From Psammoneis japonica (taxonomy: Eukaryota): a DNA stretch of 64,000 nt. The notes beneath the pieces are model-generated. The model searched no databases and was not told where the DNA came from. It saw only the letters and a program-made list of their open reading frames with translations. A program made the position numbers and the translations under genes. Every line of letters begins with the position of its first letter. The stretch's first letter is position 1. Below are positions 1-56,890 of the stretch, piece after piece. The DNA lies in NCBI GenBank assembly GCA_008632985.1, contig QPGO01000029.1, positions 62,001 to 126,000 of the forward strand, in the 5' to 3' direction.

Positions 1-3000
1 CCAGCCTCCAAATGCTTTGGTCACAATGCATCTGAGTGACATCAACATCATGAACTTCCTCACTCACCACATGGATGACACAGAGCATTCCCAGAAGGTC
101 AAAGAAGGCCAAGAGATCTCCAAGCATTCTCTTGCAATGGACTTAAGAGTGCAGCTGCTGAGCCAATCAAGAAATCCACCCTCTGTGACAAGGGTGGTTG
201 TGCCCGTGACTCCTCAGATGTTGTTTTGTCAGCTCTCAGCAACTTCAGGCTCGTCTTCAATGCCCTCATCAAGAACTTTGATGAAACAGCTCTCTGGCAG
301 CAGCTTCTCTGCTGTGGCCATGTTGCTTTTGGCAAGAGTGGCAAGCAGTTGATTGCAAATGATGGCAACACTTGTGAAATTGCTGTGAATGTGCTCAATG
401 ACATTCAAAACATCATCCACACCTTCTTCCAACTTGGAGGCATCCCAAACTGCCACAAGGTCATTTGTGATTTGCAGGATGTCAGTGTCCAGGCTTTGGA
501 CATCTCCAAGTGCTTGACCAATCAGTCAATTCAGGATCTGGAGATCAACATCAGTCATGGTCCTCCCAGAACTTTTGGCAGCAAGTGCCTGCTCTGTCAG
601 CAGCTTGCTGCAGAGTTGAGTGCCACTTTGACCTCTGGCAAGCATTTGGCTGAATGCCCTGGCTGCAGCTTCTCTGTCCAAGAAGCCGGGCTCTCCCTTG
701 TTGTTGTTGGACATGGAGCTGTGCAAGAAGATGGGTCTCCCAGTTGTCTCTGGAAACCCTGATCAGCTTTCTTTCATCCCCACTGTGGCTGAGAAAGGTG
801 CAGATTCAAGCACTGAAAAGCATCTGTGTCCTGTTTCATGATGCATGGGTTCCATTGCAGCTGTCCCAAGTGCAGCAAGCCTCACATTGCAAACTTGCAT
901 GGCCTTCCCAAAGCAAAACATGATGAGTTGATCAAGTTTGTCAACAATGCTGGCAACCTTTCCTTTGCCAAGGGAAAAGGCCCTGGTGGTGCATCTGCTT
1001 GGTTTTGTCTTGTGACAAACTGGCAAATCTGTTGTTTGACAATGTCATCTTACACTGAAATTCATTCTAGTTTTTGTTGACCTTGCTCCACCGGCTTGCA
1101 TTGTTGATTGGGCTGTTGTGAACTCAGATGAAACTGTGGGTGTGGAATTGCTGGATGGTGTTGAAACATGAGCTGAGGATGATGTTGCACCTCCACTTCC
1201 TGCTGGGGACAAGCAGAGGCTGTCTGAATCCATGGGTTTGGTGCCTCAAGATGTTCCGGATGCTGCACCTGTCTCTTTGGATGAAGTCAAAGAGTTCCAC
1301 CCATTTTTGGCACCATGAACTTGTTGAGTGACACTTGCCTCCTCCCCTGTCCCAAACATCAACAACAGCTCTTTAAGAAAGGCGAGCATGAAGAACAATT
1401 CTGTCAGATTGGCTCCAGTCACAACTGGACCAACCCTTTGGCAAGGATGACATTTGTCAGTTGTTTGTGCATCTGAAGCTGTTTTTTGTCATGCACTGCT
1501 GCCCCTGTGGAAGTCTGGTTTTCTGCAGGATGTTGCTGGTGCAAAGAGCATTCTTCTCTCCAGGTTGTTGGTTGTGTTGCCACCTGGGATGACCTGTGCT
1601 GTGTGGTGTCAGATGCTTGGCACCCAAACAACCTCCTCCGGGAGTGCAGAGATGTTGACTTCAACACCCTGCAAGGACACCCTTTGGAGTGGGAGAAAAA
1701 AAGGGCCTCAATGGGGACCACATGATGCAAAAAACCACAGCAGCTCTTCTCCATTTTGATGGAGACATGGCATTGTGAGTGGGGTGGGTCAGGGGCCTGC
1801 ACATTGCTGTGCACTTCAAGGTCAACAAGATCATGTCGTTTTTGGAAGGCAAAGTTGATCTTGCTGTCATTTCAACTGTTGGGTGCATCTGCCAAAATGG
1901 TGTTCCGGCTTGTTGTGATGGACACAATGATGTGCAAGAAGAGAACTTCCAAGCTTGTCTTCAGCATGGAAACTGTCTCTCCATTGAGATTGGACCAGAG
2001 AAAACTTGCAAGGCTCTTGCAAAGGACCCCAACCATGGCTCCATCCTGATTTTTGACTGGTGGCTCTCATGCCATTTACATTGAATTGTTGCCTGTCACC
2101 TCAGAGTCTGGTGGACATGTCAACGGGTTGTTCAAGAATCTGCGTCCAGTCTTGGACAGTGCCTTTTAGCCACTTCCATTGTCTGTGGCCATGATGGTTT
2201 TTTGTTGTTGGAGTTCAAGCCCCCTCACTCCAATGCCATGACTGAGCTGGACTTTGTGCATTGGGTTTACAATGTTTGGATCTCACACCCAATGCAGGGC
2301 GTCCACCCAGATTGATGATGATGCCGCTGGAGCTCACCACACAATGCAACACATTCCAAACTTGGCTGGCATGCATGCACTGGTCCAGTGCAGATTTGGC
2401 ATTGCCCAGACTGGTTGCAACTTCAGGGATGCACCCAATCCTTGTAATTGGGATGGTGGTCGGTCCCAAGCTTGTCAACAGCTTGTGCAATGTGCTTTTG
2501 ATGTCCCAAACATTGTGGAAATCATGCAACCTTTTTGCCAGCACTTAAATTCCTGCCAGCTCAAACAGCTTCAGAGGCTGCTTCATTTGGCCAAGCTCTC
2601 CCAGATTCTCTCAACCCAGGAGCACTGTGTGATGGCTTGAGGATGTCTCCTCCTGTGCTCAAGCTTCATGTCAGCGACAATGCATGCTTGACATTGAAGG
2701 TTTTTTGGAGCACACTGTTTCTGCTGGCATGTTTGCCCTCTGCATTTTGCAAGGGTTTCTGCATGGGGAGGTCCCCAGTGCCTTGAGCCTTGAAAAGCTC
2801 AATCTTCTTGTTTCCTTTCTTTGGGAAATGCTTGGACAAAAAATGGGGTGCAAGGACCCTCACGGTTGGCATGGTGGCTCACAAGTTGTGTGAGCTCTTG
2901 ACCATCCTTTGCAATTGGCTTGTGCAGCAGAAGCATTTCCTGGCAGATGTGTTGTCTCACTGGGTTTGTTGGAGTTCCACACCCACCATTGCCCCTGTGC

Positions 3001-4850
3001 TCACTGTTTGTTCTTCCTTCTTCAGAACAAATTTTGGCAGATTTGATTTCCTGTCATCACATTGCCCAGTGGATGCATGGGCAACAAGGCAGGAAGGAAC
3101 AATTTTTGGAACAACTCCCTTGCAAGCTTCGTTGTTGGGTGTCTTCCATTCTCTCCCAGGAAAAAACCCAGATCATTTGCCACATGCTTCCGGAGACTTC
3201 AGTCTTAGAGCCTGGTTGTTGGGCTGTCAAAAATCTGGTTGAATGTCTTGAGTCAACTCCCAACCCATGGGAGGTGCAGATTGGGACCATTGTCCCACAT
3301 GATCCCCACCACTGTGAGGGTGTTGGTGATGCCAGTGGGCTTGGAGGTGGCAGTTGCTGCTGCAAGTTTTGTTTTTGGTTCCTTGTGCTCTGGAGTGACA
3401 GAGCACATGATGGTTTGAATTCTTCTCCAGATTCTCAAGACTGTGTTGTGATGAACACTCTCAAATTTGTGGTTTCTGTCCTTGTTCCAGTGGGTGTCAT
3501 TGCTTTCATGGAGTCCATTGAAGAGCTCTTGGATCTGGAGCTTGTTGGGGCATTGTCCCTCTTGCCATTCCCAAGAATTTGGTTGTCTTGCTGAAAACAG
3601 ACAATTGGACCAATGCGGGGTGGCAAAATTGTCAGACTGCTTGCTGGTCTCTTTGGGGGCAGCATGTGCTGTGCATTTGGTTTGCACTTTGCACTCATGT
3701 TTGACTTGGTCCCAACTCACAGGGCGAGCACTGGGCTGGTGTGAACATGCAACTGGTGGATGACATTTCCTTTCCATCTGACCCTCACCTCCCTCATTCT
3801 GTCTGTGTTGTTCAGCTGTGTTGGAAGTGTCCTTTCCTCAAGACCTGGACCTTTTTCCTCCCAAGTCAAGAGCTGCTGCAGTCAATTTACTTTCGCCATT
3901 CTCCGAGTCATTGCTGGTCCGTGTGGGCTGCAGACGCCACTGTGCTTGGGATGGCTCACATGCAATGCATCCAGGATGTGAAGTGGGATGTGGATGATCT
4001 GGAGATGCTTGTGGAGCATCTTCCAGAGCACCATTGCCAGCTGCAGCTTGCTGTGTGTGCTTTGCATGTTGCAGGGGGTAACTCCGTTGTTTGCAAGCAA
4101 CTCAAGTTGGGCTCTGTCCTGCATTGTGTTGGGGATGTTGCCAAATCTATCTTGCTGTTTAGTCGCTGTTGCAATTGTTGCTGTGAGCAACCATCCAATG
4201 CTGAAATGGGCAAGATCTTCATGGCCATTGACAAGGAGCTTGAGCAGTGCAACAAAGCTCCAAAGCAGTGGTGAGATGCTGGCTGAGTTCAAGGCATGTG
4301 CTGATGCCAAGCACGCAGCTGATCCAGATGGCTTTGCTTGTGTTGTTGCTGACTGGTGTCAGGCATGCCCATTTTGTTGAGCCTGTCTCCAAGAATGGGG
4401 ACATCAGGTTGCTCCAATCCAAAGTGTTCAGCTCTTAACTTCAAGGGAGCCACTTGTGCATGGTGCCTTGATGACATCCGTGTCAAGTCTGTGGATTTGC
4501 AACACCTCGCCGGTGCTGACATCTTGAACACTCCGGTTGAGTCCATTGCTGAGATGTTGCCTCCAAGGAGGACATTCAGAATGATGTGTGCACCAAGGTG
4601 GCCACCAAGGTGTGCAAACTTGATCCTGTCAAGGACAAGAAAGCCATTGAGAGATGGTCATCCCACTCTCCTTGTGTTGGAGCTTGCTCGATGCTCCACC
4701 AAATTAACTTTAGTGTGGGGTCCATTCAGCTGCTCTTGTGTTGGTGTTTGATTGCCTTCATGGTGTGTCTTGGAAATTCTGCTCTGTTGACAGATCACCA
4801 ACACAGAGCTCTTGACTGCTCTGCAGCCATGCCCCACCTTTTGTAGATTT
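1..4850 (+). mobile_element. Degenerate tyrosine-recombinase retrotransposon (DIRS/Ngaro-like) with RT, RNase H and partial YR relics; 5' part runs off the window
   Basis: Broken + strand frames in DIRS-like order. Pre-RT segment: 'AALLHFDGDMAL*VGWVRG..NFQACLQHGN' (~1735-1975). RT-like: 'NLRPVLDSAF' and 'IDDDAAGAHHTMQHIPNLAGMHALVQCRFGIAQTGCNFRDAPNPCNW' (~2135-2450). RNase H-like: 'GDASGLGGG..FWFLVLWS..NTLKFVV' and 'LVDDISFP' (~3320-3780). YR N-terminal-like: 'LAVCALHVAGGNSVVCKQLKLGSVLHCVGDVAK' (~4040-4145). Many stops and frameshifts. Recognised by eye. Confidence 0.7.
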
Positions 4851-5214
4851 TTCAAAATGTTTTTTTGAAAATTTGGTTTTCTTGTTTGTCCATCATGTGT
4901 TGATGTGTTTGTGTGGTCATGTCTTTCTCTTTGTGTCATGCTGATGTCCAACGGATTTTAGGACACAATGTCTGGTTTGCCTGTGGTTCATGGGTTCTGC
5001 TTCCATGCACATTTTACAGGAAACATTGGGCCTGTGGCCCATTTCTGTGTGTGCTGGCATTGTGATGTGTTCTTGCACCTCAAAACATGTCATTGTGATC
5101 ATTCCTTTCAAACCGCTCAACTCCTTGCACATGAGGGCTTGATGCTGCAGTTTGGACTCTGTTTTTTCTGCACTTTGCACAATGCGTTGGCAGCCATCTG
5201 GTCTGCTTGCACAG

Positions 5215-5950
5215 TGCTGGGGAACCAAACGGATGGAGCTGGATCAGCAGATTTGCTTCCCCTTTTCCAAAACTGCTGTCTGAACAGCATCACATGAACA
5301 CACGTGTGCTTGCACATGTTCCACACATTGGATGTGCTCGTGCATTGACTGTTGAGGCCATTTTGGCACCAGCTCTGCACTGTGACATGTCATCGGGGCA
5401 TTGCAGCCAAGCGCTGAGGCAGCGGCGGGGGGAATCTGTGATTCTTGGCACCAAGATCATGGTGGGCCAAGCACAAGGAGAACCTTCCTGGTGGGTGGTC
5501 ATGCTCTTGGAGGAGTCACCATGTGAGTGATGGCAGTGTGCAGCAGAAGGCAGCAGATGGACAGATGATGGGGGCGACGATGAGAGGTCACCCAAGCAAG
5601 TTCCCCCAATTGTTCTTGGCAGACAATCAACAGCAATGGTGGGGTCAGTTGTGGTGTCCCAATGCAGGTCAACAATGCTGAAAATTCCCACCCAGCCCAT
5701 CCCTCTGTGCACACAGCACTGGGGAACGAAATGGACAGAACCAGATCCGTGGATTTGTTCCCCTTTTTCTCCAGCTGCCATCTCTCAGCAGCATCAAACG
5801 ACAAACACATGTGTGCTCGTGTGTGTTCCATGCATCAGATGCATTCGTGCATTGATTGTTGAGACCATTTCGGCAGCTCTGCACTGTGACATGTCATCGG
5901 CGTTGTGGCCAAGCCAAGGTGGTGGCAGGGAATCTACTCTACTCTCTCCA
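5215..5950. repeat. Diverged direct repeat, ~230 bp unit (~5215-5440 and ~5715-5950)
   Basis: Both copies share 'gggaac.aaa.gga', 'cgtgcattga.tgttgag.ccattt' and 'cagctctgcactgtgacatgtcatcgg'. Confidence 0.85.
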
Positions 5951-6282
5951 GTGGGGAGAGCTAGCTGCTGCTTTAGCTGCTGGCAGAGACACCGTAGAAG
6001 CAGGCCCATGGCACGATTGACTTCACCAAAACCACATAAAAATTCTTCGCACGCAAAATTTCTGTTTTCCATTGTGAGCAACATCAGAAAATGAACACAT
6101 TGTCGCCCATTTGCGATTGAAGATGTTCAATGTTCAATGTTGCTCACATGCCGCTAAGTGCCCAACACAATGGCCGTCGGGAGCAAGATGGTGCGCACCC
6201 TTCATGCAACATGCTTTCTGGTGTAGACATGTTTGTGGATTCGCATCCTCTCACCTTGTGCTGTTTTTCACAATTGCGGTCT

Positions 6283-7128
6283 TTGAAGGTGACTCTGACA
6301 CTGATTCTTTTCATCTTGGTTGCATCTCATTGAGTCGCAGCATTTCCCCTTGGTGCTGGTGCTTGCGTTGAAGATGCACCTTCAGTTTCCAGACCACACT
6401 TGAACACTCCCACGCAAGACACCATCGCAGGTGGTGGTTTCACTTTGACGTTGGGTGGACAATCGCTGAATGCGGGAACTCCGGCCACGGTCTCGACTGG
6501 AGCGCAGCACACAATCACCATCACCAGGCCTCAACCTTTTCGTGGAGTGTTGGCGAGGCTTTCAGGAGGTGATGCTGGCCTTGATGCATCTGGATTCTTT
6601 TCGTTTGTGGCTGGTGAAATGGATTTGCAGGATGCAGTTGTTTGTCCTGCTGCTGCAAGTGTCCCAGACACGCTCCCTTTTGCATCATCAATGCACACGA
6701 GCCTCTTGGCTCACACATGTTGTTCCGTGCACAGGTTGGTGGTGTCAACTCACACCTCCAACAATGACAAGACAAGCATTTCATTCTTTGTGAATGTTGG
6801 CAAGCCTTCTGCAAATGCGAAGCTTGACCTCAACATTGTCAAAACAGTGTTGCCGTCGATCTTCTGTTGTCCTCAATTTTTGATTGACGCCCAAGATCCG
6901 CCCAGTGCAATGCCCAGTGCTGCGCCATCCACAGTTCCAAGTTTGGCTTCTAGTGATGCAGATTCACCCAGTGCAACGCCTGGTGCTGTGCCATTGGCAG
7001 TCCCAAGTTTGGCTCCCAGTGATGCACCATCAACATCGGGGAAGAAAGGAAAAGGGAAGAAAGGTGAAGGGAAGACAGGAAAAAAGAAGTCGTCTTCAAA
7101 AGGAGGATCACACAATTTCCATGCTTGA
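6283..7128 (+). pseudogene. Pseudogene of a secreted Reeler-like-domain protein with PSxxPS linker and Lys/Gly tail
   Basis: Signal-like 'KVTLTLILFILVASH*VAAFPLGAGAC' with in-frame TGA at 6331-6333; 'QPFRGVLARLSGG'; relic intron 6655-6734 (GCAAGT...CAG); 'THTSNNDKTS'; 'PSAMPSAAPSTVPS'; 'GKKGKGKKG'. No Tyr in the 242-aa frame. Confidence 0.7.
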
Positions 7129-7807
7129 GACTTGTTGTTCGTGCAACGCACTTTGCTGCATGTCTTCAATGCAAGTGGACAAATGCATGTTTCTCTGTGC
7201 AGCAGCTGCAACCATGTCCAAAACCCACCCACCCACCTGCCCATCTGCCGGCCCAGCTGGGCCCACCTGCGTGCAACTCACTGCAGCACAGAGCCCACTT
7301 TTGCTGCTTGCAACAATGAACGCTCGCCAGTGCACGACTCGCAAGGTTTTTGTCATCAATGACAACACACACTCGCCAGTGCATGGCTTGCGGCTCATGT
7401 CCAGTTCGATTGTGCAATGGAGCCAGCGAGAGAAAACAGGGGTCTGCACCAGCAACAACAGCAAACGGATGACAGACGGCGAAGCGCTCAGAACAAACTT
7501 TGTGGTGAAAGGTTTTCCACATGGGAGAGCTTTTCAAGGGGGAACAGTGTGTGCACTGGCAACAATTGTCAGAGTCACTTCCATTTTTAGCCGCAGCAGA
7601 CAAAAAAGAAGGCCAGCATCGTGTGGCACAGTTTTGGCTCTGGGCTGAAATTGCGCGGTGCGCAGATCATCGACCACCGCAACGTTGGACATCAAGGAAC
7701 ATCGAGGGATCACAGAAGCAAGAACTTTCCAATCATCTCAAGTCGTTCATGGTCTGGCGGGAACACAGAATGCGCATGGACCAGACGAGAACGAGACAAG
7801 AGGGATG

Positions 7808-8246
7808 CAGTGCAGCATGCATGCAGACAAAAGGTTGTTTTTGTCACGCCCTTTGTGACATTTAAGCTGTAACACGTCGCCGTGATGCACCAACTCTTGT
7901 CAGCAGCTGCACGTTGCACTCCTCCCCATGTGTCACGCGTCCATGCGGCTCTTTGCTGACGTGTGCTGACACTGCACAGTTTTGGCGGAACAGTGTGGGT
8001 ACGTACGAAGGAACACACAGAACTGCACAGAGTTTTTACGCGCTCGACAGTGATCAACGTTGCTGCAGACAACTCCCACTCAGGGTTTCGAACCCCTGGC
8101 CTCCTGCCTGATGGTCATGCGATGAACCACTCCGCTGTCAATTCACAGTGCAGCATGCGCGCAGACAAAAGGTTATTTTTGTCACGCCCTTTGTGACATT
8201 TAAGCTGCAACACGTTGCCGTGATACATTGGCTCTTATTGGCAGCT
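7808..8246. repeat. ~100 bp direct repeat (~7808-7910 and ~8146-8246)
   Basis: 'cagtgcagcatgc..gcagacaaaaggtt.tttttgtcacgccctttgtgacatttaagctg.aacacg' occurs twice. Confidence 0.9.
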
Positions 8247-8279
8247 GTGTGTTGCAGCGGGAGTTGTTGAAAATTTTTT

Positions 8280-10300
8280 TTGGAGGGACGCGGAGCGTCC
8301 CTGGAGGGACATTTGTCCCGCGGAGCGGGAGGGACGCGCGAAGCGCGCCCCCGAGGGACAGGGTGTCCCTCGGGTCCCTCGCAAATTGGCCGGAAATCGA
8401 CGGGTGGAGCCGGCGACCAGACCGGTCACCCTGCGACGGACGACAGACGGTCCGACCACCGCACTGCCGCCGCTCGCTCGTTGCTGCTGTCTGCCGTTTT
8501 CATTGCCATTGTTGCGATTCGTTGCGATTGGACTTGCATGGCATGAGCTGTTGGCATCATTTGTCCACAATGCCATCTCTCATCAATGAAAAAGATGCTC
8601 CAACTGCACAGGCCCAGGACGGGTTGGAACCACCAGCAACCACTGCAGCAGGCACAATCTTCTACTCGCATCACAGCAATCCATGCAAGAAGGACAAGTC
8701 CAGCGACGAGCCGAGCGACGAGGCAAAAGCGAGTGAGGTGGACCACATCAATCGACTTGCCACTGAGCTTGAGGCCTCCTTTTTGGAAGATTCAAATGAG
8801 GGTGAGGCAGAAGAGCGCGAAGACGAATCCATGATGCTCCAAGCATGCGCAGAAATGCAAGACAAAGCAGACCGAACCAAAGATGGCTGCAAGACGGCGG
8901 TCGCAGCATTTAACGTTTTTGCCAAAAAAAACAGGATGTCCACCAGTCCATCAGTTGGAACGAAAGCATCTGCGTGGAGAGACTCTCACTGTGCCGAACT
9001 GCAGCAAATTGATGAGGCAATTCTGCACTTTCTTAATGGAGCACAAGATTGAACGCAAAGGTGCTCGCAAGGGGACTCACTGGAAGCCCAAGTCGCAGGC
9101 ACAATGTGATTCTGGTGTGTGCATGGTGCTCAAGAAGAAGTTGGGGCATGGAGCACTTTACAAAAAATCCGAGCATGACGAACTCAACAAATCTCTAAAA
9201 GCAAGGGCCTGCGCACGCTGTTTGCAAGTGAGGAGAAGGAGCATTTCAATGGCAGCAATCGTCCTCAAGCAAAGGATGATGACAACTACATGGCTTGGTG
9301 GGACAGGGCTTGCAAGACATTGAAATCCGTGTCTCTCAAGCACATTTTTAATTTGGTTGAGCAGCACAACAAAGCCGTGCCCTTGTGCAACAAGCTGGTT
9401 GATGAAAAGAAGGCAGCATCAACTCGCAGCTTCAAAGCCAGCACAAGTGAGGAGAGGAAGGTTATTGATGGAAAATCCAAATTGGAAAACAAAGTGGGAG
9501 CTGTTGTTTCGGCATTGGAAAAAACTGCAAACGATGATGAACAAGATTGAGAAAGAGGGCAAGAGGGCGGCGGCTTAAAAACTCCAGTCACATTGACAGC
9601 AGATTAGCATGCTATTTGCATCACTAGTGTTTGTTGTAAGAGTCTCAAATTTAACAACCTAACATGCTCCATCATGCGACACCACTGGCAGTTTCGGATC
9701 GACGGCAGATTAGCTTGCTGTTTGCACCACTGGCATTCATTGTAGGAGTCTTAATTTTAACTACTGCATCATATGCTCTATCACATGTCACACGACATAC
9801 GATGGTGTGACACTACCAATAGTTTCGGATCGACCATTGGGAATCGAAATGCTGCACAACCTGCATCCTTCGTACACGCTTTCCCTAGAGTGCGCGCTTC
9901 TCCAAATTTGAAATTGCTGCATGGTTTCAAACAAAACAGAAATCCATAATTCACAATGACACACAATGGAATCAAAGTCATTGGATGTATTGTACAATTT
10001 ACGTTAAGAATGAAATAAGCAACGGGAAAATCGGTGAAAGTATCATTGAGATATCACGCCGTAAAGTGGGACACCGGCGGCTCGCATCATTGTGCTGCTG
10101 CAGTTTGCTGCGTGCAAATCAAATTGACTTGGTAAAACTTTGTGAGGGTTTCGTGTCCCTTGGAAATTGTGCGTGTTGTGTGCGATTGATTATGTGTCTG
10201 TGTATGGCACTTGTATGCGTGTCGTGTCCCTCAGGAATTGGGTGTACTGTCCCTCTGAGTCGGTCTAACACAGAAAATGTGAGCGAGGTGAGGGACACCT
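8280..10300 (+). mobile_element. Probable degenerate, internally deleted mobile element (possibly Crypton-like) bracketed by GAGGGAC/GTCCCTC motif clusters
   Basis: Motif clusters at 8282-8381 and 10224-10298. Broken ORF ~8570-9550 has an acidic N-terminus, then 'DRTKDGCKTAVAAFNVF' and 'LMRQFCTFLMEHK..KSQAQCDSGV', which resemble a recombinase core-binding region. No catalytic domain visible. Confidence 0.4.
9595..9835. repeat. Diverged tandem duplication, ~105-130 bp unit
   Basis: 'gac.gcagattagc.tgct.tttgca.cact' and 'agtttcggatcgac' each occur twice. Confidence 0.8.
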
Positions 10301-10578
10301 AATGCACTAAACATGATCTGATACATCCATTATTGTTTTAATATTTATTCTTAGTTGCATAAAGTAAAAAGGACCGTACTCTACCATACTTCTATAAAAT
10401 CATTTACAATTATTAAAATCCAGTTATTAATAAGTTAAAATACAAAATAATCAGAGGACGACGACGACTCAAGACTCATCACAGCCATGGCGTATTACTG
10501 TAGAAAATTGTCTTTGGTGTCGACGATTGACAGAGTTTGTGAGAAAGCAACCCCATAAGCAAAGATTGACTTGAAACA

Positions 10579-11461
10579 ATGATTTTGTATGCAGTTATTG
10601 CTCGTGTCAAAGATGCGGTCGTGCTGGCAGAGTGTTCGCAGCATGGCCTCGGTGGGAACGCATCTCAGGCATCCTTGGCGTTGCTCGAGCACTTGAGAGA
10701 CCATCCCGACAAGATTGTCGATGGGGATCGCATGTCCTTTGTACAGCGAAACGACGAGGTGAAGGATTGGTTTATCGATATCATCAATACGTGCACAGGT
10801 GGTGTCGACACTCAACAACAGAGCGGCCAAGAGCACTACTTTCATGTTTTGCGAGTTGCTGGTGTGTACTACTGCTGTCTGTCGGATGATGCACAACGTG
10901 GAGAACAAAAAGTGTGAGTTCCGAAACCGAGCATTGAAAGTCACTTATGTGATATCTTTGGTGTTTGTCTAACAAACGTAAATTTCCGCACATTCATTCC
11001 TTAGGAGCTTTGCTCTTCTGGAGCACATTCAGGTTGAATTCACAAAGAAGTATACCGACAGGCGCATTAGCAAAGCCAATGCGTATGGTTTCGAAAAATC
11101 ATTCTCACCCGAGATGCGCTCCGCAATGCACCATTACAACGTGAATCATAATGCTCTGAGTCAAGAAGAGAAGGTTCAAGCGCTCGACGCTGAAATTCAG
11201 GATCTGAAAAACGTCCTTGGCCGAAACATTAATTTGCTGCTAAGACGGGGCGAAAATGTGGAGAGGCTTCTGGAAAAATCAGAAAATCTAAGGAGAGACA
11301 GTATGGTGTTTCGAAAGAAGGGCGATCAGCTCAAGAGAAAGATGCGCGGGAGAAATTGGTGCTTGATACTCATGTTCGTTTGGGTGGCGATAACGGTTCT
11401 CTATATGATTGCAGCGGCTTTTTGCGGACTATCCTTTTCTAGATGCTCATTCAAAGAGTGA
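10579..11461 (+). CDS. VAMP7: Longin R-SNARE (VAMP7-like), 2 exons
   Basis: Longin N-terminus 'MILYAVIARVKDAVVLAE'; intron ~10914-11004 (GT..AG); synaptobrevin motif 'LGRNINLLLRRGENVERLLEKSENL'; C-terminal TM helix. Confidence 0.9.
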
Positions 11462-11930
11462 AGAGAGTGCATTTGTACTGCTTTGGAAGTTCATGGACAC
11501 GTAGTGTAGGCGTGATTATGTGATGGCTTATGACACGAACGATCGGGTTAGTTTGCAGTCGCAAGAAGCGATGATGTTTCTTCTAAGTAGTCTACCTAGT
11601 TCTGGTTGCTTGTTTTCTTCGTGGTGAGAAGAAAGACCGCATAGTCTAGAAGCAAATGCAGAGATGGAATGTCAATCGCACCTCACAGTGAACCGGTACG
11701 AATCTACAATGGCAGAACTAGAGCTGATGTTTGGAAAGAGACGCACATTGCTAGAGTACTACGAGCATAAATCACATTTGGAATGTGCAACGGCATAAAA
11801 ATTAAAGACTACAACCTGTTCTTGGAATGATGGTCTGACACGAATGAATCTACAATGTTGGAGTTCTGCCTGTAGTAGCCTATGATCTCGGTTCACTCCT
11901 TCCTTCCCTGCAATTGTCTATGATAGGGGC

Positions 11931-13516
11931 TTACTCCTTCATGCCCTTCGCCATCTCAGAATCCTTGAGTCCCACGGCAGCCTTGCTGTAATCCCAAACT
12001 TTTTTCGCGGTAGGAAGATCTCTGACGGCATCACTCTGAGTGTTCTCAAAGATTTCTCCTCCAGAACCGCCGGCTCCTCGTGGCTTTCCGTCGGCACTCC
12101 AGCGACCGACCGTCTGAGCTCCTCCGTTCCAACTCCAGTAAACACCAGACTTGTTGCAGTTGGGATCATCAATCACCTGAGCAAGGCGCTCACCCGCCTC
12201 TTTTTCACTGACATATCCACCGGTCACGTACTTCATGAACCAAGGGAAGGCCTTGCGGAACCAAGTTCGCTTTTCACGGAACAAAGCAGTCTCAGCAATG
12301 CAACCAGGGTACATGCTGGAAAACACAATACCGGTACTGTCATGGTATCTCCTGTGAAGCTCAGAAACAGTCATCATGTTGCAAACCTAGAGGGACAAAA
12401 TATTTCAAATGAGTGTTCCGAGAAAAAACAAAAAGAGCACGACAGATCCTCATTATGGCTTCTTACCTTGGAGTCTTTGTAAGCCTTGGCACCAAAGAAG
12501 GGCTTACCGTCGGCCATTTCAATGGGCTTCTTGGCTCCTTGTTCCAGACCTTTGAGGTTTCCGAGGTCAGCTTGAGGGTATACGAGACCTCCTCCGACGG
12601 TGTTTGTGTTGCCCGTAATGGATCCAACAATGCACACACGGGCGCCCTTTGCCTTTCTCATATCCTCAAGTAGCAGGTTAACGAGAAGAAAGTGTCCCAA
12701 ATGGTTCACGCCCTAGAAAAAATGAAAAACCAAATTATGAGATTCACATATTCAACAAAGAAAAGAAAATGCTGCTCTTTGTCGTCTTACCATTGACATT
12801 TCAAATCCATCGTCGGTCCACGCAGGCTTTGGGTCGGTAGGTTTGTAGACAGCTGCGTTACAGATAAGGTGTGTAAGCGGCCGAGCAGACTTGAAAGCCT
12901 TGAGGTTTTTCACAAAATCTCTCACACTTTGGAGACTGGCGAGCTCAAGTTTCATAACAGTGTAAGAGTTTTCTGGGAAGTCTAATTCCTTGGCAACTGT
13001 AGAGTATGGAGAAAAATGAGAAAATTAGATATTCAGCCCACATCGAAAACACAAACTTCTCGACCACGACCTATACAAAACAAATAAGAGAACAGGATAT
13101 TCCATTTTATTTTCGTTTGCGCATCACTCACCTTTTTTCCCCTTTTCGACATCACGGCAAGCCATAATGACAAAGTATTCCCCAGTCTTAGCGAGTGATT
13201 CGGCGCATCGGAGACCGAGACCAGAGGAAGCTCCAGTAATTACCACAAGCTTACGAAGACCGATTTTCATACCACCAAGAACCTTGGGAACCTCCTTTTC
13301 AGCAGGCATGTACACCTTTTCGGGCAATTCCGTCTGCGTTAGCATATCGCATCGTGCCGATGTTGTCGGGGTGACGACGGCATCGGGCTGCCTGAACAAG
13401 GGCGATTTCACAGCCGATTGCTGCACATTCAGCGCCTTGTTTGACACTGGAGCAAAGGCACTCACGAGCGATACAGCTGAGGCTGCTAGGACCGCAAAAC
13501 GTTGGAGTTGGACCAT
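11931..13516 (-). CDS. POR: Light-dependent NADPH:protochlorophyllide oxidoreductase, plastid-targeted, 4 exons
   Basis: Signal peptide plus 'SAFAP'; '[11 protein letters not shown]'; 'NHLGHFLL'; catalytic 'AYKDSK'; '[13 protein letters not shown]'; 'SGVYWSWN'. Three GT-AG introns. Confidence 0.97.
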
Positions 13517-14093
13517 GGTTGCAGCTTTTTCCAACTCACTCTTAGAGACGCGATTTTGTGATTCAGACACCGATGCATGATCGATTTGATGGATGCAAAT
13601 TTTGATGGGTGGTACGTACGTAGATTTCTACACGAAAAACATACTGAAGTTGAGGTTGAAAAATCAACTGCGGAGAACGGATTCATTGCATTCCATAAGA
13701 TCTGAATAATTGTATAGTGAAATACTCCTCCGGGTGACTAATTTTGCCAGTATTGATTCTACGAGTTTTTACCGTACAAAACTTCAACAATCCGAGATGA
13801 TCGAATTTGCTGTCCGTGTGTCAGTTCCAGGTGGAAATGCCACTGTTCGACGGAGTGTGGCGCAGACAGAGAAGAATAATGAGAGTACCGTATCACGAGG
13901 ACCGACCGCGAACGATCTCTTTAGAGTTGTGAAGACAGAAATAACTTTATGTTTTAGCACGATGGCCATACACAGTGGTATCGGTGACACTTTTACATGA
14001 TAGCCCTATTTATCCAAACAAGCTATCATTTCGGTAATGCTGTTCGTCTATCATTCAGCGTTTAACACACGCAACCCGGTCTACCGTACATGC

Positions 14094-15662
14094 CTACATT
14101 CCGGACATTGGAGGCGGGTCGCGATACTGCACAGATATCATGCTCGAAGGATCAACGGCTGGCACCGGCTGGGGAGCAACAGCAGGTGGAGCTGGCTCGA
14201 TTGTGTGTGCTGACTGCTGCAGGACTGACGAGTTATTCTGAGGCGGCACAAGGGGAGGAGGGACAGCGTTACCGTTGCTATCCAACTGAACCTGCTCAAG
14301 TTGCGGAATGAGCGTAGACCAGATTTCTTCCATTCTCTTGTTGTATTCAACCTGCAAGTTGATATAGTCAAGGACAGTGCGCCGCATATCCTCCGCCTTT
14401 TCTCGCTTGAATCGGTCAACTTCTCGCAAAACTCGCTGTGAGACAGTGGCAAAGTCATCTCTCGCAACCTCCGCCGCTTCCTGCGCTCGCCGAAGAGAAA
14501 TCTCCGCCGCATATGCCTTTGCGTCCATGCCCGGTTGAGCCCGAAGCTTTGCAAGGCTGGTTTGTTTCGATTCAACCTCCGAGAGGCACGTGCTGTAGGT
14601 GAGACGCTTTTCGTGGCGTCGCTGCAAGGCCAGCTTGACCGCATGAATCGTCTTGATGTAGTCCTGCAGCGGTTCCTCAAACTGCGCCATTTCTCGTTCC
14701 GCATGCTCGGCACTGAGAACCGACAACTGATCCGCAGTCTCACCCATTTTACCAAGAGCATCACCGAGAGCATCAGCCTCGCTCTGGCCCAACAGATTAA
14801 AGGCGAGACCAAATTCAAACAGCCCATTGGCAATCTCTTTCCCTTTTCGAACTAGGCCAGAAGCCTGATTTGATACATTCTTCATCTGCAAATCTAGACC
14901 ATGAACATAGCGGTTAACTTCATCAAAGATGGCGTCGTCAGGACTCTTGACTAAATCTCCAGAAATCGAAGTTTTCGCTTCGGCAAACCAGCGCTTAAAG
15001 CCGTCCTTCTTGGGCGGAGTCGCCCTGACTGGCAGCGACGGGTTGGAAGACGACAAGACTACATCTGCTTTCGAGTGCTTCGCAGCCTGAAAGGTCACAT
15101 CATCGGCTCGTAGAAAGGTATCAAGGCACTGCGCATCCGCCAACTCGGGATGAACCGCCACTCGGCGCAAAAAGCGTTCCAAGTTGACACGGCGGTCTTC
15201 CACAAAGGCAGCCGAGAAACGAGCTACTGCCTGCTTCTCGGGAAGAGGAGGAACAATGGCACCGGCACGTTCTTTGTGAAGACGTTCGTATAACCACAAA
15301 AAGTCAGAATATCGTCTTAGCACCGCACTATAAGTGGTATTGGATAGAATAACGTCCTGATTCTCGGCAGAGGGCGTTGTTGCCGGAGGGCGCACGTCTA
15401 CTCGATAAGACGTGTATTTGTTCATGCCCTCCGAGTGCTGAACTGGGTCAGATACCTAAGAAAAACAATAACAGTAAACGCAAACGCACTCATGAGCTTG
15501 ACTTATGCACCCAATATTCAAGAGTCACGTTGACCCCATCCGGTTGAGTCGTATGTCGCGACGAGGTGATTGAATACCTACCGTAATGTGAAGTGCGGCG
15601 TCTTCTGGCCTTGCTGTTCGCTGCGCCGCTGGTGGAGCTGTAGATCCCGCCATGGTCATCAT
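14094..15662 (-). CDS. SNX1: Sorting nexin (PX-BAR, SNX1/Vps5-like), 2 exons
   Basis: Exon 1 'MMTMAGSTAPP..AALHIT' splices to 'VSDPVQHSEGMNKYTSY'. PX motifs 'VLRRYSDFLWL' and 'IVPPLPEK', followed by a helical BAR domain. Confidence 0.93.
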
Positions 15663-16684
15663 GATTGCAGGGAGTCAAAGAGCTTTAGAGGTAGATGTAG
15701 AGCGCTGGAGACTGGAGAGGTTAAACTCCGTTCACCATGGCATGGAGGCCGGAATGCGGGAGTCTTCAGCAGAAATTCGGCCTTTGTACGTACAAGTGAC
15801 GTGTTTTCGATACGGCGGTATTTTAACGGTTCGATACGTTGGTTAGTCCAAAGAGTCGAAAATTCTGCGTTAGCACATTCGGGCGACGGGCGAACTCCGT
15901 TCGATCACCCAGCCCGCCCGCCCGCCCATGCATCCATGCTCTAGGCCCACCATGCATGTCCATAAAGTGCTCTCACTGTTGGACTGCATTATAGAAAGAA
16001 AGCAAACTTGCTGAAGAGATCCTCTCTGCTCTCTGGCGCCAAGCCAAACTCCAGCAAAAAGGCGAGAGAGGCGCCGCTCTTCACGCACCTGCCGGCTTTC
16101 CACAGAGTTGCAACCTCTCCGTTTTTCTGCAATGCACGACAATTTTAGAGAAATGAAATCTGTTGTTGGTGCCATCTTTTGCAACTTCTTTAATTGATCA
16201 TCTGCAAAGCATCACACTCCCCTCTGAGCATCAGGAGGCCTGGTGGCTCTGAGTGCCTCTGCCAACACCGCTGCACCCGAGGAGGGCACCACTGTCTGTG
16301 AGTTGAGCAGACTGTTGGCAGCATGGATTGATGCACAACAATGGCACTCATGGGCCTCCACTAGAGCCATGAGGCCTGCCGTACAGTGGGGCCCTGGCAG
16401 CGAGACCCAAGACGGTGGCATGCACCAATTTCCCGCCAAATCTCCGTCGACCGTTGAGTTTCAGCAAAGCATAATTTTTTTATTCAAACCTTAATATTAT
16501 ACATATGAATGTTTAACCTTGAGTAATGATGAAAGCAGACAGTTTCAAATTTCCAAAAAACGGACGCCACTTTTTTCTTGCCCAACGCTTTCTCACCCCT
16601 TGGCTGATCAGCCAGAGCGGCCATTTGCTTTGTTATTATCAATAGATTGAGCAACCTATACTAGTGCACCAACCGCCAACGACA

Positions 16685-18429: not shown

Positions 18430-20230
18430 TGTTGTGATCTGCAGCTGCAAACGAGACACACCACATGCATTGCCTCACTTGCTGGGGCAATGCATGCCAC
18501 AAACTCAGCCAGGTGGAAGCGGCACATGTTAATCTGTTACCCATCAGCCCGGTTGCCTGGTCACATTCGTGTGTCTTTCTGTGTTTTGCGCAACACAGAC
18601 CACGTGTGTTGCTGACTTTGCCTGATGCAAGGAATGATGACGAACAACGCCAGCATGAGATGAAAGTTTGGAGGACAAACTGTCAGTGACAGCATTGCAG
18701 TGAAGAGAGACACCACCACACACACCTTCTTGCTCCATCCACATGCTTGCTGGGACAAGGCATGCTGCAAACTCAACAACCAATTCCAAAAGACATGCTG
18801 GGATTGCCACAAGCTCTGTTGCCAACCAGCCCAATTGGCCATGTCTGTTGCATGGCATGATGCATGCCATATGCATGCTGTTAATTTTCTGCTGCTGCTG
18901 CTGCTGCCACACAGCTGCTTTTCTCCTTCATTTTCTTCTTGGTGCAGAGTTGAGGAGCCCACATTGTGAACAAAATCACAATGCACAGGACATGCTTTTT
19001 GAAAACTGGTGCATTGCCCAAGCACCAGACAGCCACAGAAAAAATGCACACCTGCAACAAGCCATGGAAGAGGGGGCAGGCAGTGTCATCATGTGAAAGA
19101 GCACAACCAGCACAGCCACATTGCACATTCAGCATCAAACATTGCACACTGCAAAACATTGGTTTCATCAAGCAGGTGCAGGGGGGGGGGCTCTGCTTGC
19201 TTTCCAAAGTCATGAAAGCCACCAAACAACTTACATCAATGGAAATTTCAGAGTGAGAGCCAAGAATTGATGTGGGCATGTCACACGCTGCTTAAGAGTT
19301 TTGATGCCTGAACAAAGCCCCCACAAAAGCAATGTGCATGAATCCAAAAATTGAGCAAATTGACTTGTGCAGCAGGACAGGGTCTCTGAGTGGTGCTTGA
19401 GCAGAGATTTCAGTGTTGTGCAAAACCACAAAACTGTTTTGCGCAAAGCACATGTGTGCGCAATGGCAAGACATGCAGAGCTTGAGTCCTCACATAAAAC
19501 CAGTCACACTTGGCACTGCACAGATCCTGCACACAAGATGGCCAGTCGCAACGTGACTTGATGCATGGAGCTCCAGCAGCCTGTTGCAGGTCTTGCACCA
19601 GGGCTCACATTTTCCAGCATGCACTTCTGCATGATCAGTGTTTCCATGGTGGACAGCCTGCAGACACACAGGAAAGCAGCATCGATGACAGCTGTGGCAA
19701 GGACTCCATTGTGTCCCCAAGTGAGCTTGTGAGAGCAAAAATGTGGCCCAAAATTTGTTGGCAATGTCTCAGCAAGCAAGTGAACAACAATGAAGCTGCA
19801 ATGCAGCAGCATTGCACGTCATTCACAGAAGTGATTGTCAACTCAATGATGTGGCGGAAGTGCTTTTGAAGTGAGATGAGATGCATTTTGCACCAAGCAA
19901 CGCCTGTGCTGAGTCTCGCGTCAAAAACTCAGAAATCGTCAAAAATGCAGAAATCTCCGTCACTGCACGACGGGGCTGCTGTCAGGGAATGTCTGTGCGA
20001 GCACACAAGATGAGAAAAACCTGCTTGGCATTGTTCTTCATTGTTTGTAGAACACATTTGGTCACTTGCTGATGAGATGTGACCATTTTTGAAGGACTGG
20101 AGATGCACCTGCTCGTGTCAAGAAGGCGAGCTCCACTCCCTTGAAATTTTGGCGAGCTTGAAAAAGCCGTTTGGAGCTCCACGAGAATTTGAAATGAGAG
20201 ATTTTGCTCTCCACGCACAGCATAAGTGTT
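18430..20230. other. TpA/CpG-depleted degenerate island of unidentified origin (probably a transposon relic)
   Basis: Abrupt switch to TG/CA-rich composition between two intact genes. Frames are Cys/His-rich and almost Tyr-free. Short (CTG)n at ~18889-18906. Confidence 0.7.
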
Positions 20231-23432: not shown

Positions 23433-25009
23433 CCCCAACCCGTGACTTGAGGGGTCATAAAATGTACCCTCACTTTTCAGTCACGAATTAAGATGTCAGA
23501 ACGATTTGATACGAAACTTGCCTAAACATGATAAAACAGAAGCTTTCCTTCTAAAACAGGCCATTATCGCAAAATGTGGTTGCTAAATGCATTTCGATGC
23601 CCTGTAAGCTCGTTAAAGCTAAAGCTTTTTCGTCCAAATTGATCGCCAAAACTGAGCAGGGGACACATTGTGTACCCCTCACGCAAAGCATTTTTCGCGA
23701 TAATTATTGCATTATATATATTATACTATTAATATTGTATATATAGCTGGCCGATCCAAAAACAGCAAAAACGACGTTTTCCCGCGCTGCGACGCCAAAC
23801 ACCAAACATAATCATAATAAATCGACCATGACAACATCGATAGGCGGCGCTCGATTATGGCGCCCACACGCTTCCTGACAATCACATCAGTAAAGAATAC
23901 ATTACTATTCGCTGTAAGATGTGTATCCACGAAAAGAGAGGTGAGAAAAAGTGGAAGAATGGACAAAACCGCGTTCTGTGCTATCTGCTCGATTCTCACC
24001 ACTTGTTTCTCACGCTTGCGTTGTATTTTCGGTTTGTTCTCAACAGATTGACAAGGGCACAACCCATTATTTCCTGAAAGTCTCAAAGAATTGACTCTAC
24101 GAGGTTGCTCTAGTCACCAAGTGTGCAAAGTGAGTGCCGGGCTTGGAACTTCGGGCTTGTTTGTCGCATTGCCGATGGAATCAACAATCCACCCAACTCA
24201 GCAGGAGCAGTCCGAATCCCTGGAATGGTGAACAGCATTAAGAGGTAGCAGTGGCAGTGGTGATAGGTCTAATTGCTGCAATTGTGTGACAAGTGGCAGC
24301 AGTGGCAGCGGCAGCATGCGCAATCGACGGAACTGTTCATTCAGGAATCGGAAGAGTTTTCGGCACACGTTGACAGTGCCAACAAGACGCTGGAATTGGT
24401 TTGGCAACAAAGGGAACATGCACACTTTACTCTCTAGCATGGCCACTCTTGTTGATGCCGAAAGTGGATGTTGCAATAGATTTTGAAACACAATGCACAG
24501 TGACACACACAGCCACTTCTGCTTGTTACATTTTGCCAAGTGACAAAACATTTGGTGACAATGCAATGTGTGCTGCAACTTTACACTTTACAGCGCATTA
24601 CTGCACAGTGCAATGCATTGCTGCACAGCATAAACAGTGTTGTGTATGACCATTAACAACTTCACCAACAATGCTTTGTGTGACATGGCACACCCAATGA
24701 CTTGCTGGCTGAGGCAGTTGTTAGTTTCATGTCATCGTTGCAGTGACGCTCATGATCTGTTGCTGAGAATTCAACTACTTCCGGATCAAAAAATTTGCCA
24801 TGTTGTGATGCAGCATTGTGGCAAGGTTGTAACGTGTTGCGGAGACGTTACAAGGCCAATAGAGGCACTTGTTTGCGTGCCGCCGATGGTTTCATTACTC
24901 ACCCTCTGAGGGTACATTTTATGTCCCCGAAGGCGGCGGAATCCGGATTCTGGATTTTTGACAAAAACACCGTCGGGGACATTTTATGACCCCTTAGCGC
25001 GGGTTGGGG
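23433..25009. mobile_element. Non-autonomous piggyBac-like DNA element with TIRs and ATAT target-site duplication
   Basis: Left end ATAT|CCCCAACCCG..AGGGGTCATAAAATGTACCC; right end GGGGACATTTTATGACCCCT..CGGGTTGGGG|ATAT. Extra subterminal motif copies at ~23660 and ~24910. CCC...GGG ends and the GGGTCA..TGACCC-type motif are piggyBac-like. No intact transposase. Confidence 0.75.
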
Positions 25010-25350
25010 ATATGAGCTGCATGTTCGAAGCTTCAAACGCCACTTATCGGCCTATCCCCTGTTGCTAGGTTGAAATTACCGCTAATTTTCGCCAAAATCG
25101 CGCTGTTTATGGTAGATGAGCCACAACTTTCCAGGAAATGCCGATAATTGGCGTTTGATTGGCTATAGACATATCTACAGTCGATAAGCTAAAGATCGCA
25201 CATGGTCACAACCATCGTTTATGCATTCTATGATGTCTTAGGAACTGACAAAGTTAGACCTATCGCTAGAATTTCATTTGGCGAACGCGCGTGCATTTAG
25301 TGCGGTGCATCCGGTTATTATCCCAAAAAATTATTGGTCCGTAAATACCA

Positions 25351-26374: not shown

Positions 26375-26529
26375 TCCTTAATATTATCCGCGACTTCCGA
26401 GTCGTGGGAACGCAATCTGGAAATCCTGCTCGAGACAAGACGATGCCGCCCGGGATCGACCATCGACACAAAAAGCAAACGCAGCATCGGTTATCTAACC
26501 TTTTGAAAGCAACGAAAACAAGGCAAAGC

Positions 26530-56800: not shown

Positions 56801-56890
56801 GCTTCTGTTTTGAGTAAACTCCTAACGAACGGGATTTTTTTTTAGCTAGATACAGTCGTTACTGCTCGTTTTTGTTTGAATCGTTTCTTT

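Follow-up and report, generated by a model that had tools for sequence, protein, structure and literature searches.

Sharply bounded diatom DNA tracts that lose TpA ahead of CpG, a probable trace of TpA-directed hypermutation

The window analyzed here, a stretch of 64,000 nt of nuclear DNA from the diatom Psammoneis japonica, contains sharply bounded tracts within which, and only within which, TA has been converted to TG or CA on either strand alike, with CG loss following TA loss. The probable explanation, in our judgment, is a TpA-directed A:T>G:C hypermutation that acts on the same tracts as a slower CpG decay; the stretch flagged in the initial annotation (8400 to 9560) would then represent the right-hand margin of one such tract (Table 1).

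Table 1. Tracts, repeats, and ORFs of the window (X1, public DNA run)
Feature	Positions	Setting	Remarks
Tract A (truncated by window start)	1-9575		TA-depleted, TG/CA o/e 1.6-1.9; TA change-point 9575
Tract A core, CG also gone	1-5725		44 CG (o/e 0.13), 20 TA (o/e 0.06); CG change-point 5725
Tract A margin, TA-free, CG-retaining	5725-9575		27 TA (o/e 0.12), 171 CG (o/e 0.67)
Direct repeats, 113 nt x2	7806-7918, 8144-8256	Inside ~400-copy repeat	85.6% nucleotide identity
Orphan ORF pieces	8561-9049, 8835-9320, 9179-9547	Within 8400-9560	No Pfam match
~12-18-copy repeat element	8672-10672		Crosses TA boundary 9575; X1 depth 1039, 1021, 664 vs ~56
Tract B	18540-20220		Mostly single-copy by depth
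Tract B CG-free core	18650-19815		
Tract B TA-free, CG-retaining margins	18540-18650, 19815-20220
Tract C	36690-44425		CG-free core 36935-42000
Tandem array in tract C, 114-bp unit	41064-41812
Tract C CG shoulder	42000-44425		CG o/e 0.27, TA o/e 0.03
Small, presumably young tract	49250-50750		Centred on junction of tandem duplication 48784-49894 / 50018-51137

Within the tracts, TA o/e was 0.03 to 0.12 and TG/CA o/e 1.6 to 2.1, with the other 12 dinucleotides and base composition hardly altered. The summed o/e of the four pyrimidine-purine steps was ~3.9 both inside and outside tracts and was roughly kept per flanking context as well, as predicted by conversion through transitions. Neither strand nor reading frame made a difference to TA depletion, which covered non-coding tandem duplicates too. 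When the window was scanned, TA o/e was <0.2 in 74 of 255 scan windows, which fell in the three tracts, the small tract, and one isolated bin (16000 to 16249); TG/CA o/e in these TA-low scan windows was 1.5 to 2.4, except for one that was CG-rich (at 8251; ~1.2). TA and CG were both low in 53 scan windows, and TA was low with mid or normal CG in 21. CG was low with normal TA in 2, both belonging to one unrelated CTAG-rich simple repeat. This CTAG-rich stretch excepted, CG loss was confined to TA-free DNA, while TA loss with CG kept does occur. Deep in the domains both dinucleotides were gone, as had been described (tract C core, TA o/e 0.03 and CG o/e 0.09; tract A core, Table 1). The kinetic inference of the initial annotation holds, but its term decoupled is too strong: the losses were nested and correlated (TA versus CG o/e across scan windows; Spearman 0.67), indicating the same targets with differing kinetics.

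At four of the five tract edges the TA change-point lay 110 to 3850 bp outside the CG change-point, and the fifth edge carried a CG shoulder of 2.4 kb. The TA boundaries were steps, pooled TA o/e dropping from 0.61 over the 250 bp just outside tracts to 0.04 over the 250 bp just inside. Borders were sharp to within 250 bp, and TA loss did not tail off into flanking genes, so that the initial suggestion that TA loss may spread further than CG loss was not supported. Tracts B and C had no convincing terminal repeats or target-site duplications at their ends.

Recounting the flagged sequence confirmed its low TA and many CG: 8521 to 8940 holds exactly 2 TA (8663 and 8911) and 19 CG, 6300 to 7100 likewise holds 1 TA (at 6951) and 26 CG, and 8400 to 9560 overall holds 8 TA and 52 CG. 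The string quoted as an example, cagcgacgagccgagcgacgag, was located at ~8700. For 8400 to 9560, 8521 to 8940, and 6300 to 7100, respectively, TA o/e was 0.12, 0.09, and 0.02 and CG o/e was 0.70, 0.69, and 0.51. Such counts were absent from control windows slid across the TA-normal parts of the window: at most 2 TA in 0 of 3820 windows of 420 bp (minimum 4, median 15), at most 1 TA in 0 of 3630 windows of 800 bp (minimum 15), and at most 8 TA in 0 of 3450 windows of 1160 bp (minimum 24).

The small tract served as a natural experiment. It runs from the 3' portion of one tandem copy into the 5' portion of its neighbour, and the 1.2-kb duplication is mutated only in the parts adjoining the junction; each half therefore has an untouched paralog outside that can be used as a polarising reference. 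Relative to the outside paralog, 23 of 28 TA sites were converted, to TG (11) or CA (12), against 11 of 25 CG sites converted to TG/CA (Fisher P = 0.005). TA loss is accordingly no by-product of completed CpG decay, in agreement with the initial annotation. Reverse changes numbered 4 and 4 among 113 TG/CA sites, and the commonest substitutions were A>G (24) and T>C (25). Strand-coordinated runs of conversions were not seen (18 runs versus 18.0 expected), with TG-type products interleaved with CA-type ones at TA and CG sites. A 504-bp tandem repeat of 98.4% identity was unmutated (TA o/e ~1; 52 shared TA, 5 transitions, 3 transversions), indicating that repetition alone is no trigger.

Repeats inside the tracts also diverged almost exclusively by transitions (transition:transversion counts of 16:0, 36:7, 16:9, and 11:1; 33:50 for a gene paralog pair outside tracts) and were 92 to 100% identical in purine/pyrimidine space versus 75 to 86% in nucleotides. 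A self-overlapping pair (41221 to 41852 and 41099 to 41741), with 0 differences on global alignment, was excluded. The 113-nt repeats (7806 to 8256), for example, differed by 16 transitions and 0 transversions and were 100% identical in purine/pyrimidine space. Sites with CA in one copy and TG in the other were many (13 in ~230 bp), the mark of an ancestral TA or CG resolved independently. At 7955 and 7958 the window carries TG, and about half of the ~400 copies of the surrounding repeat carry TA. Repeat pairs in the margins were without TA and had CG still segregating. Of the two losses, that of TA was the quicker or the more thorough. Self-comparison of the window in purine/pyrimidine space revealed no new long repeats between tracts, and a scan of metagenome contigs for a degenerate 32-nt motif taken from the high-copy repeat gave 0 matches.

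We propose the following mechanism. A TpA-directed A:T>G:C hypermutation would convert TA to TG or CA, on either strand at random and with one site per event, and the TA level in the tracts is ~80 to 97% below that of ordinary DNA. Decay of CpG to TpG/CpA, most likely by 5-methylcytosine (5mC) deamination, would be slower, with a roughly 2 to 8 times lower apparent dose per site. Action of both processes on the same tracts would explain why the presumably old cores are without TA and without CG, nearly all of their pyrimidine-purine steps being CA/TG. TA is already gone as well from the margins, from presumably younger insertions, and from the small tract, all of which keep CG at a quarter to five-sixths of the ordinary level; the margins would be younger than the cores. 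The chemistry could be deamination of adenine in DNA, which has been proposed for Bigelowiella natans, with 5mC deamination at CpG; because TA is palindromic, A>G and T>C are indistinguishable, and adenine deamination is a hypothesis borrowed from that system. A chromatin or foreign-DNA signal may define a tract.

The strongest competing account is that the tract A margin is a mosaic of inherited compositions, in which 5725 to 9575 consists of repeats that were TA-poor on arrival and the pattern at 8400 to 9560 is uninformative about local kinetics or spreading. Sequencing depth (run X1, with copy numbers taken relative to a single-copy reference of ~56) indeed divides the margin into a single-copy piece (5725 to 7337), a ~400-copy repeat (7338 to 8671), and part of a ~12-18-copy repeat (8672 to 9575), and the element to which the last piece belongs spans the TA boundary with no change in copy number. 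Other copies of this element carry TA at 8889, 8938, 8972, and 9089, where the window has TG/CA, and CG at 8879. A contig of the element at depth 370 is itself TA-poor over 8672 to 9338, with only 4 extra TA and 1 extra CG among the differences listed, and contigs of the spliced-RNA-like run X2, which covers the tracts only via other copies of repeats, match other copies of the element as well. Because other copies of 8672 to 9575 are also TA-poor, some of the TA loss did not originate at this locus, and most of the TA poverty of this piece, being common to the family, may predate the window copy. Against the mosaic, the window copy has lost further TA relative to other copies, single-copy margins look alike (5725 to 7337 and, partly, 19815 to 20220, with 19344 to 20000 at ~2x single-copy depth), and the comparison of the small tract with its own paralog reveals conversion in place with TA ahead of CG. 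The mosaic also leaves the origin of the family's TA poverty unexplained, merely moving the same mutation process elsewhere. We regard it as unlikely, though to be taken seriously.

Alternatively, one dual-specificity deaminase could act efficiently on A in TpA and less so on C in CpG, making the TA-first order a matter of substrate preference. That CG loss never occurs outside TA-free DNA would fit a single enzyme, as would the common products of TA and CG (TG/CA), with both product types interleaved and without strand runs. ADAT2 enzymes, moreover, reportedly act on A as well as C in DNA (cited in the accessible portion of bioRxiv 10.64898/2026.01.13.699255). In contrast, the same portion of that preprint gives 230 of 231 B. 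natans hypermutations as A>G or T>C, all of those on TpA, and reports no CpG component. The apparent TA:CG dose ratio ranged from 2.3 to 8.5 across unsaturated segments and was 0.8 at 24000 to 24750. A fixed preference would not predict the range between unsaturated segments, and neither does so variable a ratio provide a single calibrated clock; the initial idea that the TA/CG ratio could date residence in a silenced domain fails in the form of a simple ratio. CG or TA was set against TG/CA in 28 of the 40 best-supported of 296 differences between the window and X1. Of the differences listed, 26 lay in tract A contigs at single-copy depth, and 15 of these were of CpG type, indicating that CpG decay is still segregating there. 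One contig in the margin had 7 differences in 540 bp, against 2 in 2610 bp of neighbouring genes, at most a hint of a raised mutation rate in the living organism. Plentiful CpG-type polymorphism where TA is exhausted is expected of an independent, ongoing process, and we consider a single enzyme improbable.

An artefact, in which modified bases in the tracts are systematically miscalled as transitions during sequencing or assembly, appears very improbable. Strand-specific miscalls would likewise give random TG or CA at homologous sites, and no library type is recorded for X1, the confirming run. Contigs of X1 reproduced the assembly sequence at ~99.7% and at single-copy depth, an agreement that is not fully independent since X1 may derive from the same sample. 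Over the tracts, however, its contigs had an even depth of ~56, equal to that of neighbouring genes, with 2 to 7 differences per 540- to 2137-bp contig. In addition, copies of the high-copy repeat differ in state at single sites (7955 and 7958) at depths in the thousands, and tract borders are sharp.

The weakest alternative, selection at the RNA level against UpA, and partly against CpG, in expressed coding or virus-like sequence, can draw on the long ORFs present (8561 to 9049 and 6334 to 7125) and on the known suppression of UpA and CpG in expressed RNA (accessible part of PMC3829696), but it is hardly credible and already largely refuted, given that TA o/e in the flagged stretches lies far under that of all 15 coding segments (ORFs or RNA-supported exons; TA o/e 0.39 to 0.69, CG o/e 0.69 to 1.25), that the ORFs are orphans, that long ORFs are expected where TAA and TAG are absent, and that depletion is equal across strands and frames, including non-coding duplicates with a visible direction of change. 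Pfam searches of the 109 tract ORFs of at least 90 aa gave 0 matches above the cut-off and two sub-threshold matches at chance level, leaving no recognisable viral or transposon genes in the tracts. ORF 8561-9049 had a single weak match (E = 2e-4) among 1.84 billion representative proteins, for which Pfam gave nothing informative, and no usable Atlas match; for ORF 6334-7125, proteins 145 to 462 residues long included no homolog at E <= 0.001. ARAGORN found 0 tRNA genes in the window and Rfam 0 matches in 5000 to 11000; the tRNA-like look of ~8080 to 8140 was supported by neither.

A TpA-specific hypermutator has so far been reported once, in 2026, from one rhizarian alga (B. natans; bioRxiv 10.64898/2026.01.13.699255, accessible portion). 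Finding a near-saturated trace of this process in a diatom as well would make the mechanism more than one species' curiosity. As to whether diatoms have a TpA-directed hypermutation on delimited tracts, including single-copy DNA, several times faster than CpG decay and with a terminal state of nearly all CA/TG, we find the case evenly balanced. If they do, TA and CG content would together give a two-hand record of the duration and intensity of targeting of each segment, and such editing of marked DNA would be ancient and common across SAR algae. The ordered loss of TA and then CG offers an internal, sequence-only ranking of segments by exposure. Transformable diatoms exist, and such a host would permit a search for the enzyme and the targeting signal. 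For annotation, caution is warranted: TA-free tracts yield long spurious ORFs, and their repeats are missed by nucleotide-level searches but recovered by comparison in purine/pyrimidine space.

Several known systems share features with the tracts. ADAR hyper-editing of dsRNA and APOBEC editing of retroelements produce strand-coordinated clusters and depend on an intermediate in the form of RNA or single-stranded DNA. The transitions seen here are likewise of deaminase type, and the ADAR preference for a 5' U before the edited A fits the TA motif; in contrast, outcomes in the diatom are strand-random site by site and lie in contiguous chromosomal DNA that includes non-coding duplicates. Fungal RIP, thought to be a genome defence, generates TpA, since its C>T changes fall mainly on CpA. 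Transition-only hypermutation and sharply bordered segments are common to both, and a tandem duplication underlies the small tract. However, TpA is destroyed and CpA raised in the diatom tracts, and the duplication trigger of RIP does not apply, in that the 504-bp duplication is unmutated and single-copy DNA (tract B, mostly) is affected. Deamination of 5mC, which drives CpG decay in methylated repeats of vertebrates and plants, matches the tracts in its CG>TG/CA changes, in CG o/e falling to ~0.1, in the TG/CA excess, and in the enrichment of CpG-type polymorphism, and transposable elements are methylated in diatoms (accessible part of PMC9998398). Unlike the tracts, it cannot remove TA, and CG loss in the diatom trails TA loss, occurring only where TA is gone.

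Among related diatom and stramenopile contigs (79 loci, 520 kb), TA o/e was <0.2 in 3 of 1959 windows of 500 bp, all 3 with TG/CA o/e of at most 1.36, and no comparable tract was present; these loci are mostly short genic contigs or transcripts and so provide no evidence that other diatoms are without such tracts. We found no report of the TA-loss pattern in diatoms in the literature, and a preprint on diatom TEs (10.1101/2025.10.24.684338) contains 0 mentions of dinucleotide, RIP, CpG, mutational, methylation, or words beginning with deaminat.

The closest counterpart is B. natans, as described in the accessible portion of Mettrop et al. (bioRxiv 10.64898/2026.01.13.699255). In mutation-accumulation lines of this alga, 231 of 302 mutations fell in two integrated viral regions of NCLDV and virophage DNA, where the mutation rate was ~1000-fold over background. 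Like the diatom tracts, these regions change TA to TG/CA on either strand and only in contiguous regions, and the long-term trace in both is a clustered depletion of TpA with a gain of CpA and TpG. In both, the regions are mostly unannotatable, single-copy targets are possible, and the hosts are SAR-group algae. The targets in B. natans are viral, whereas the diatom tracts have no viral genes recognisable by Pfam. The trace is also far more complete in the diatom, with TA o/e of 0.03 to 0.12 against a Rho of 0.45 in the B. natans NCLDV region. Finally, the diatom tracts carry an overlay of CpG loss (core o/e ~0.1; 11 of 25 sites in the young tract), the term CpG being absent from the accessible text on B. 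natans, and we read this loss as a second process beside the TpA hypermutation.

The initial annotation held that TpA loss is decoupled from CpG loss at domain edges, citing only 2 TA with many CG at 8521–8940 and about one TA with many CG at 6300–7100. These counts were reproduced (2 TA and 19 CG; 1 TA and 26 CG, respectively), and the whole flagged stretch (8400–9560) contains 8 TA and 52 CG. In ordinary parts of the window, no windows of matching size reached such low counts: the minimum was 4 TA across 3820 windows of 420 bp (threshold ≤2), 15 across 3630 of 800 bp (≤1), and 24 across 3450 of 1160 bp (≤8). The observed/expected ratio (o/e) of TA in the flagged stretches (0.02–0.12) lies far outside that of 15 ordinary coding segments (0.39–0.69; 4 covered by spliced RNA-like contigs), so the annotation's first refuting condition, TA o/e typical of expressed coding sequence, does not apply. 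Among related diatom/stramenopile contigs (520 kb), TA o/e fell below 0.2 in 3 of 1959 windows, none of which had a strong TG/CA excess.

The flagged stretch belongs to a series of tracts (see table) in which TA o/e is 0.03–0.12 and TG and CA o/e are 1.6–2.1, with the remaining twelve dinucleotides and base composition nearly unchanged. The summed o/e of CA, TG, CG, and TA is ~3.9 in tracts, equal to that outside, and is approximately preserved within each flanking context. A gain of TG/CA with an unchanged sum matches conversion of both CG and TA to TG/CA by transitions. Deep in the domains both dinucleotides are indeed gone (core CG o/e 0.09–0.13). A CTAG/TAG-rich block near the window's end has the opposite composition.

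Protein searches matched an alpha-adaptin ORF (32705–34891) to diatom proteins at 85–91% identity (named matches include Nitzschia, Cylindrotheca, Epithemia, and Bacillariaceae), and further long ORFs belong to ordinary genes of eukaryotes (NOL10, sorting nexin, transglutaminase, and 2-hydroxyacid dehydrogenases), indicating that the window is diatom nuclear DNA, probably from a pennate species. Contigs from X2, a run labelled "DNA?", omit 91, 80, and 126 nt at 10914–11004, 12385–12464, and 15453–15578, as spliced RNA would, and so point to introns in the neighbouring genes (10501–15679).

Transition-to-transversion counts between repeats within tracts were 16:0, 36:7, 16:9, and 11:1 (one self-overlapping pair left out), compared to 33:50 for the D-2-hydroxyacid dehydrogenase paralogs outside the tracts, our control for ordinary divergence. 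Within-tract repeats were 92–100% identical in purine/pyrimidine space versus 75–86% in nucleotides; units of the tract C array were 90–92% and 77–80% identical, respectively, and the array yields a spurious 434-aa minus-strand ORF. Many sites carry CA in one repeat copy and TG in the other (e.g., 13 in ~230 bp), as expected if ancestral TA or CG was resolved independently; ordinary mutation would need two events. The small tract straddles a 1.2-kb tandem duplication (48784–49894/50018–51137), so that the two stretches within it, 3′ in copy 1 and 5′ in copy 2, can each be compared with an untouched paralog. Taking the copy outside the tract as ancestral, 23 of 28 TA sites were converted (11 to TG, 12 to CA) and 11 of 25 CG sites became TG/CA, with just 4 and 4 opposite-direction changes at 113 TG/CA sites; the commonest substitutions were A>G (24) and T>C (25). 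TG and CA outcomes alternated randomly (18 runs observed, 18.0 expected), indicating many independent events on either strand rather than processive single-strand editing. On these alignments, the tract changes are directional mutation in place, by a process that tracks chromosomal position rather than sequence family.

The same duplication bears out the proposal that TA loss is the faster, its TA conversion being significantly more complete than its CG conversion (Fisher P = 0.005). Across 255 windows of 500 bp, 53 were low in both dinucleotides, 21 were low in TA with mid or normal CG, and 2 were low in CG with normal TA, both in an unrelated CTAG-rich simple repeat (60501–61000). The TA change-point lay outside the CG change-point at 4 of 5 tract edges; the fifth has a 2.4-kb CG shoulder (CG o/e 0.27, TA 0.03). 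TA borders were step-like, with pooled o/e jumping from 0.04 to 0.61 between the 250 bp just inside and the 250 bp just outside; pooled CG o/e was 0.46 in that inner 250 bp and 0.24–0.39 deeper. Margin repeat pairs lacked TA in both copies while still differing in CG, and the pair 5202/5704 shared 1 CG, with 8 in a single copy only. A more recent, MITE-like insertion, stripped of TA but not yet of CG, may account for the 939-bp segment between inverted repeats in tract C (CG o/e 0.32 against 0.09 in the core; TA o/e 0.04). "Decoupled" thus holds for kinetics but not for targeting, since the losses are nested and correlated (Spearman 0.67): they differ in speed. The suggestion that the TA/CG ratio could date residence in a silenced domain did not survive in simple form, because the ratio of apparent TA to CG conversion dose spans 2.3–8.5 among segments and is 0.8 at 24000–24750; it is no simple clock and ranks segments only approximately.

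By read depth in the public DNA run X1, the tract A margin (5725–9575) is a mosaic, and its 8672–10672 element spans the TA border at 9575. At 8889, 8938, 8972, and 9089, where the window reads TG/CA, other copies of this element carry TA, and at 8879, where it reads CA, they carry CG; judged by the differences listed, they are still TA-poor. The window copy has thus lost further TA, but the TA poverty of 8672–9575 is mostly family-wide, which weakens the reading of this stretch as a pure "domain edge". At 7955 and 7958, about half of the ~400 repeat copies have TA and the window TG. This repeat contains two 113-nt direct repeats, and 8280–8400 is a CG-rich cluster of GGGAC/GTCCC palindromes. 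A tRNA-like appearance at 8080–8140, noted by eye, gained no support from ARAGORN or Rfam. ORFs of the flagged stretch were orphans in Pfam and protein homology searches; long ORFs are expected because TA-free DNA lacks TAA and TAG stops.

Coordinates of features in the window
Feature	Position	Detail
Tract A	1–9575	
Tract B	18540–20220	
Tract C	36690–44425	
Small tract	49250–50750	
Tract edges	9575 vs 5725; 18540 vs 18650; 20220 vs 19815; 36690 vs 36935	TA vs CG change-point
Single-copy piece	5725–7337	read depth
Repeat, roughly 400 copies	7338–8671	read depth ~23,000 vs ~56 (single copy)
Repeat element, about 12–18 copies	8672–10672	read depth
Tandem duplication, 504 bp	25349–26377	98.4% identity; TA o/e about 1
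Tandem array inside tract C	41064–41812	~6.5 units of 114–115 bp
Perfect 22-nt inverted repeats, tract C	42139–42160 and 43056–43077	flank 939-bp segment
Two tandem D-2-hydroxyacid dehydrogenase paralogs	55477–58165	~75% identity
CTAG/TAG-rich simple-sequence block, then (GA)n run	60460–60800	TA o/e 1.38; CG o/e 0.12

A 2026 preprint on Bigelowiella natans (bioRxiv 10.64898/2026.01.13.699255) describes mutation-accumulation lines in which 231 of 302 nuclear mutations fell in integrated giant-virus and virophage regions, 230 of them A>G or T>C changes located without exception at TpA, at ~1000-fold over background. It also describes clustered, mostly unannotated TpA-poor, CpA+TpG-rich genomic windows, proposes a DNA-acting ADAT2-like adenine deaminase, and makes no mention of CpG. 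Our literature search found no other precedent for TpA hypermutation. The diatom tracts resemble what such a process would leave once saturated, overlaid by ordinary decay of CpG that is presumably methylated. We consider two processes acting on common targets fairly probable, and a single deaminase specific for both TA and CG improbable, since the B. natans process, as described there, leaves CpG alone and the dose ratio varies severalfold between segments. Among 67 residual tract TA sites, TTAA was enriched 4.4-fold and ATAT, GTAT, and ATAG were disfavoured, and TGA/TCA products were under-represented, small-sample hints that A followed by A may be a poor substrate. A small, apparently partly converted patch (24430–24740; TG/CA o/e about 1.6–1.8) retains TA, by eye, mostly after T (TTAC chiefly, one TTAA), with ATAA and GTAT too; TTAA and TTAC are over-represented among residual tract TA.

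A sequencing or assembly artefact has a small probability: X1 has no recorded library type and may be from the assembly's own sample, but X1 contigs at depth ~56, like adjoining genes, reproduce the tracts with 2–7 differences per 540–2137-bp contig. Of the 40 best-supported among 296 differences between window and X1, 28 set CG or TA against TG/CA. Single-copy contigs of tract A had 26 differences (15 CpG-type, 2 TpA-type, and 9 other), indicating that CpG decay still segregates where CG remains and that TA is almost exhausted. RIP-like repeat sensing is ruled out by the 504-bp duplication, which bears no sign of conversion (5 transitions, 3 transversions, 52 shared TA), and by tract B, mostly single-copy by read depth.

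Pfam recognised no viral or transposon domains in tract ORFs, and no terminal repeats marking tract borders were found. The literature searched held no report of TpA-directed loss or TA/CG-free tracts in diatoms. On the two-process reading, toward which we lean, the tracts would reflect TpA hypermutation of the B. natans type, this time in a diatom, almost saturated, with sharp borders and overlain by CpG decay.
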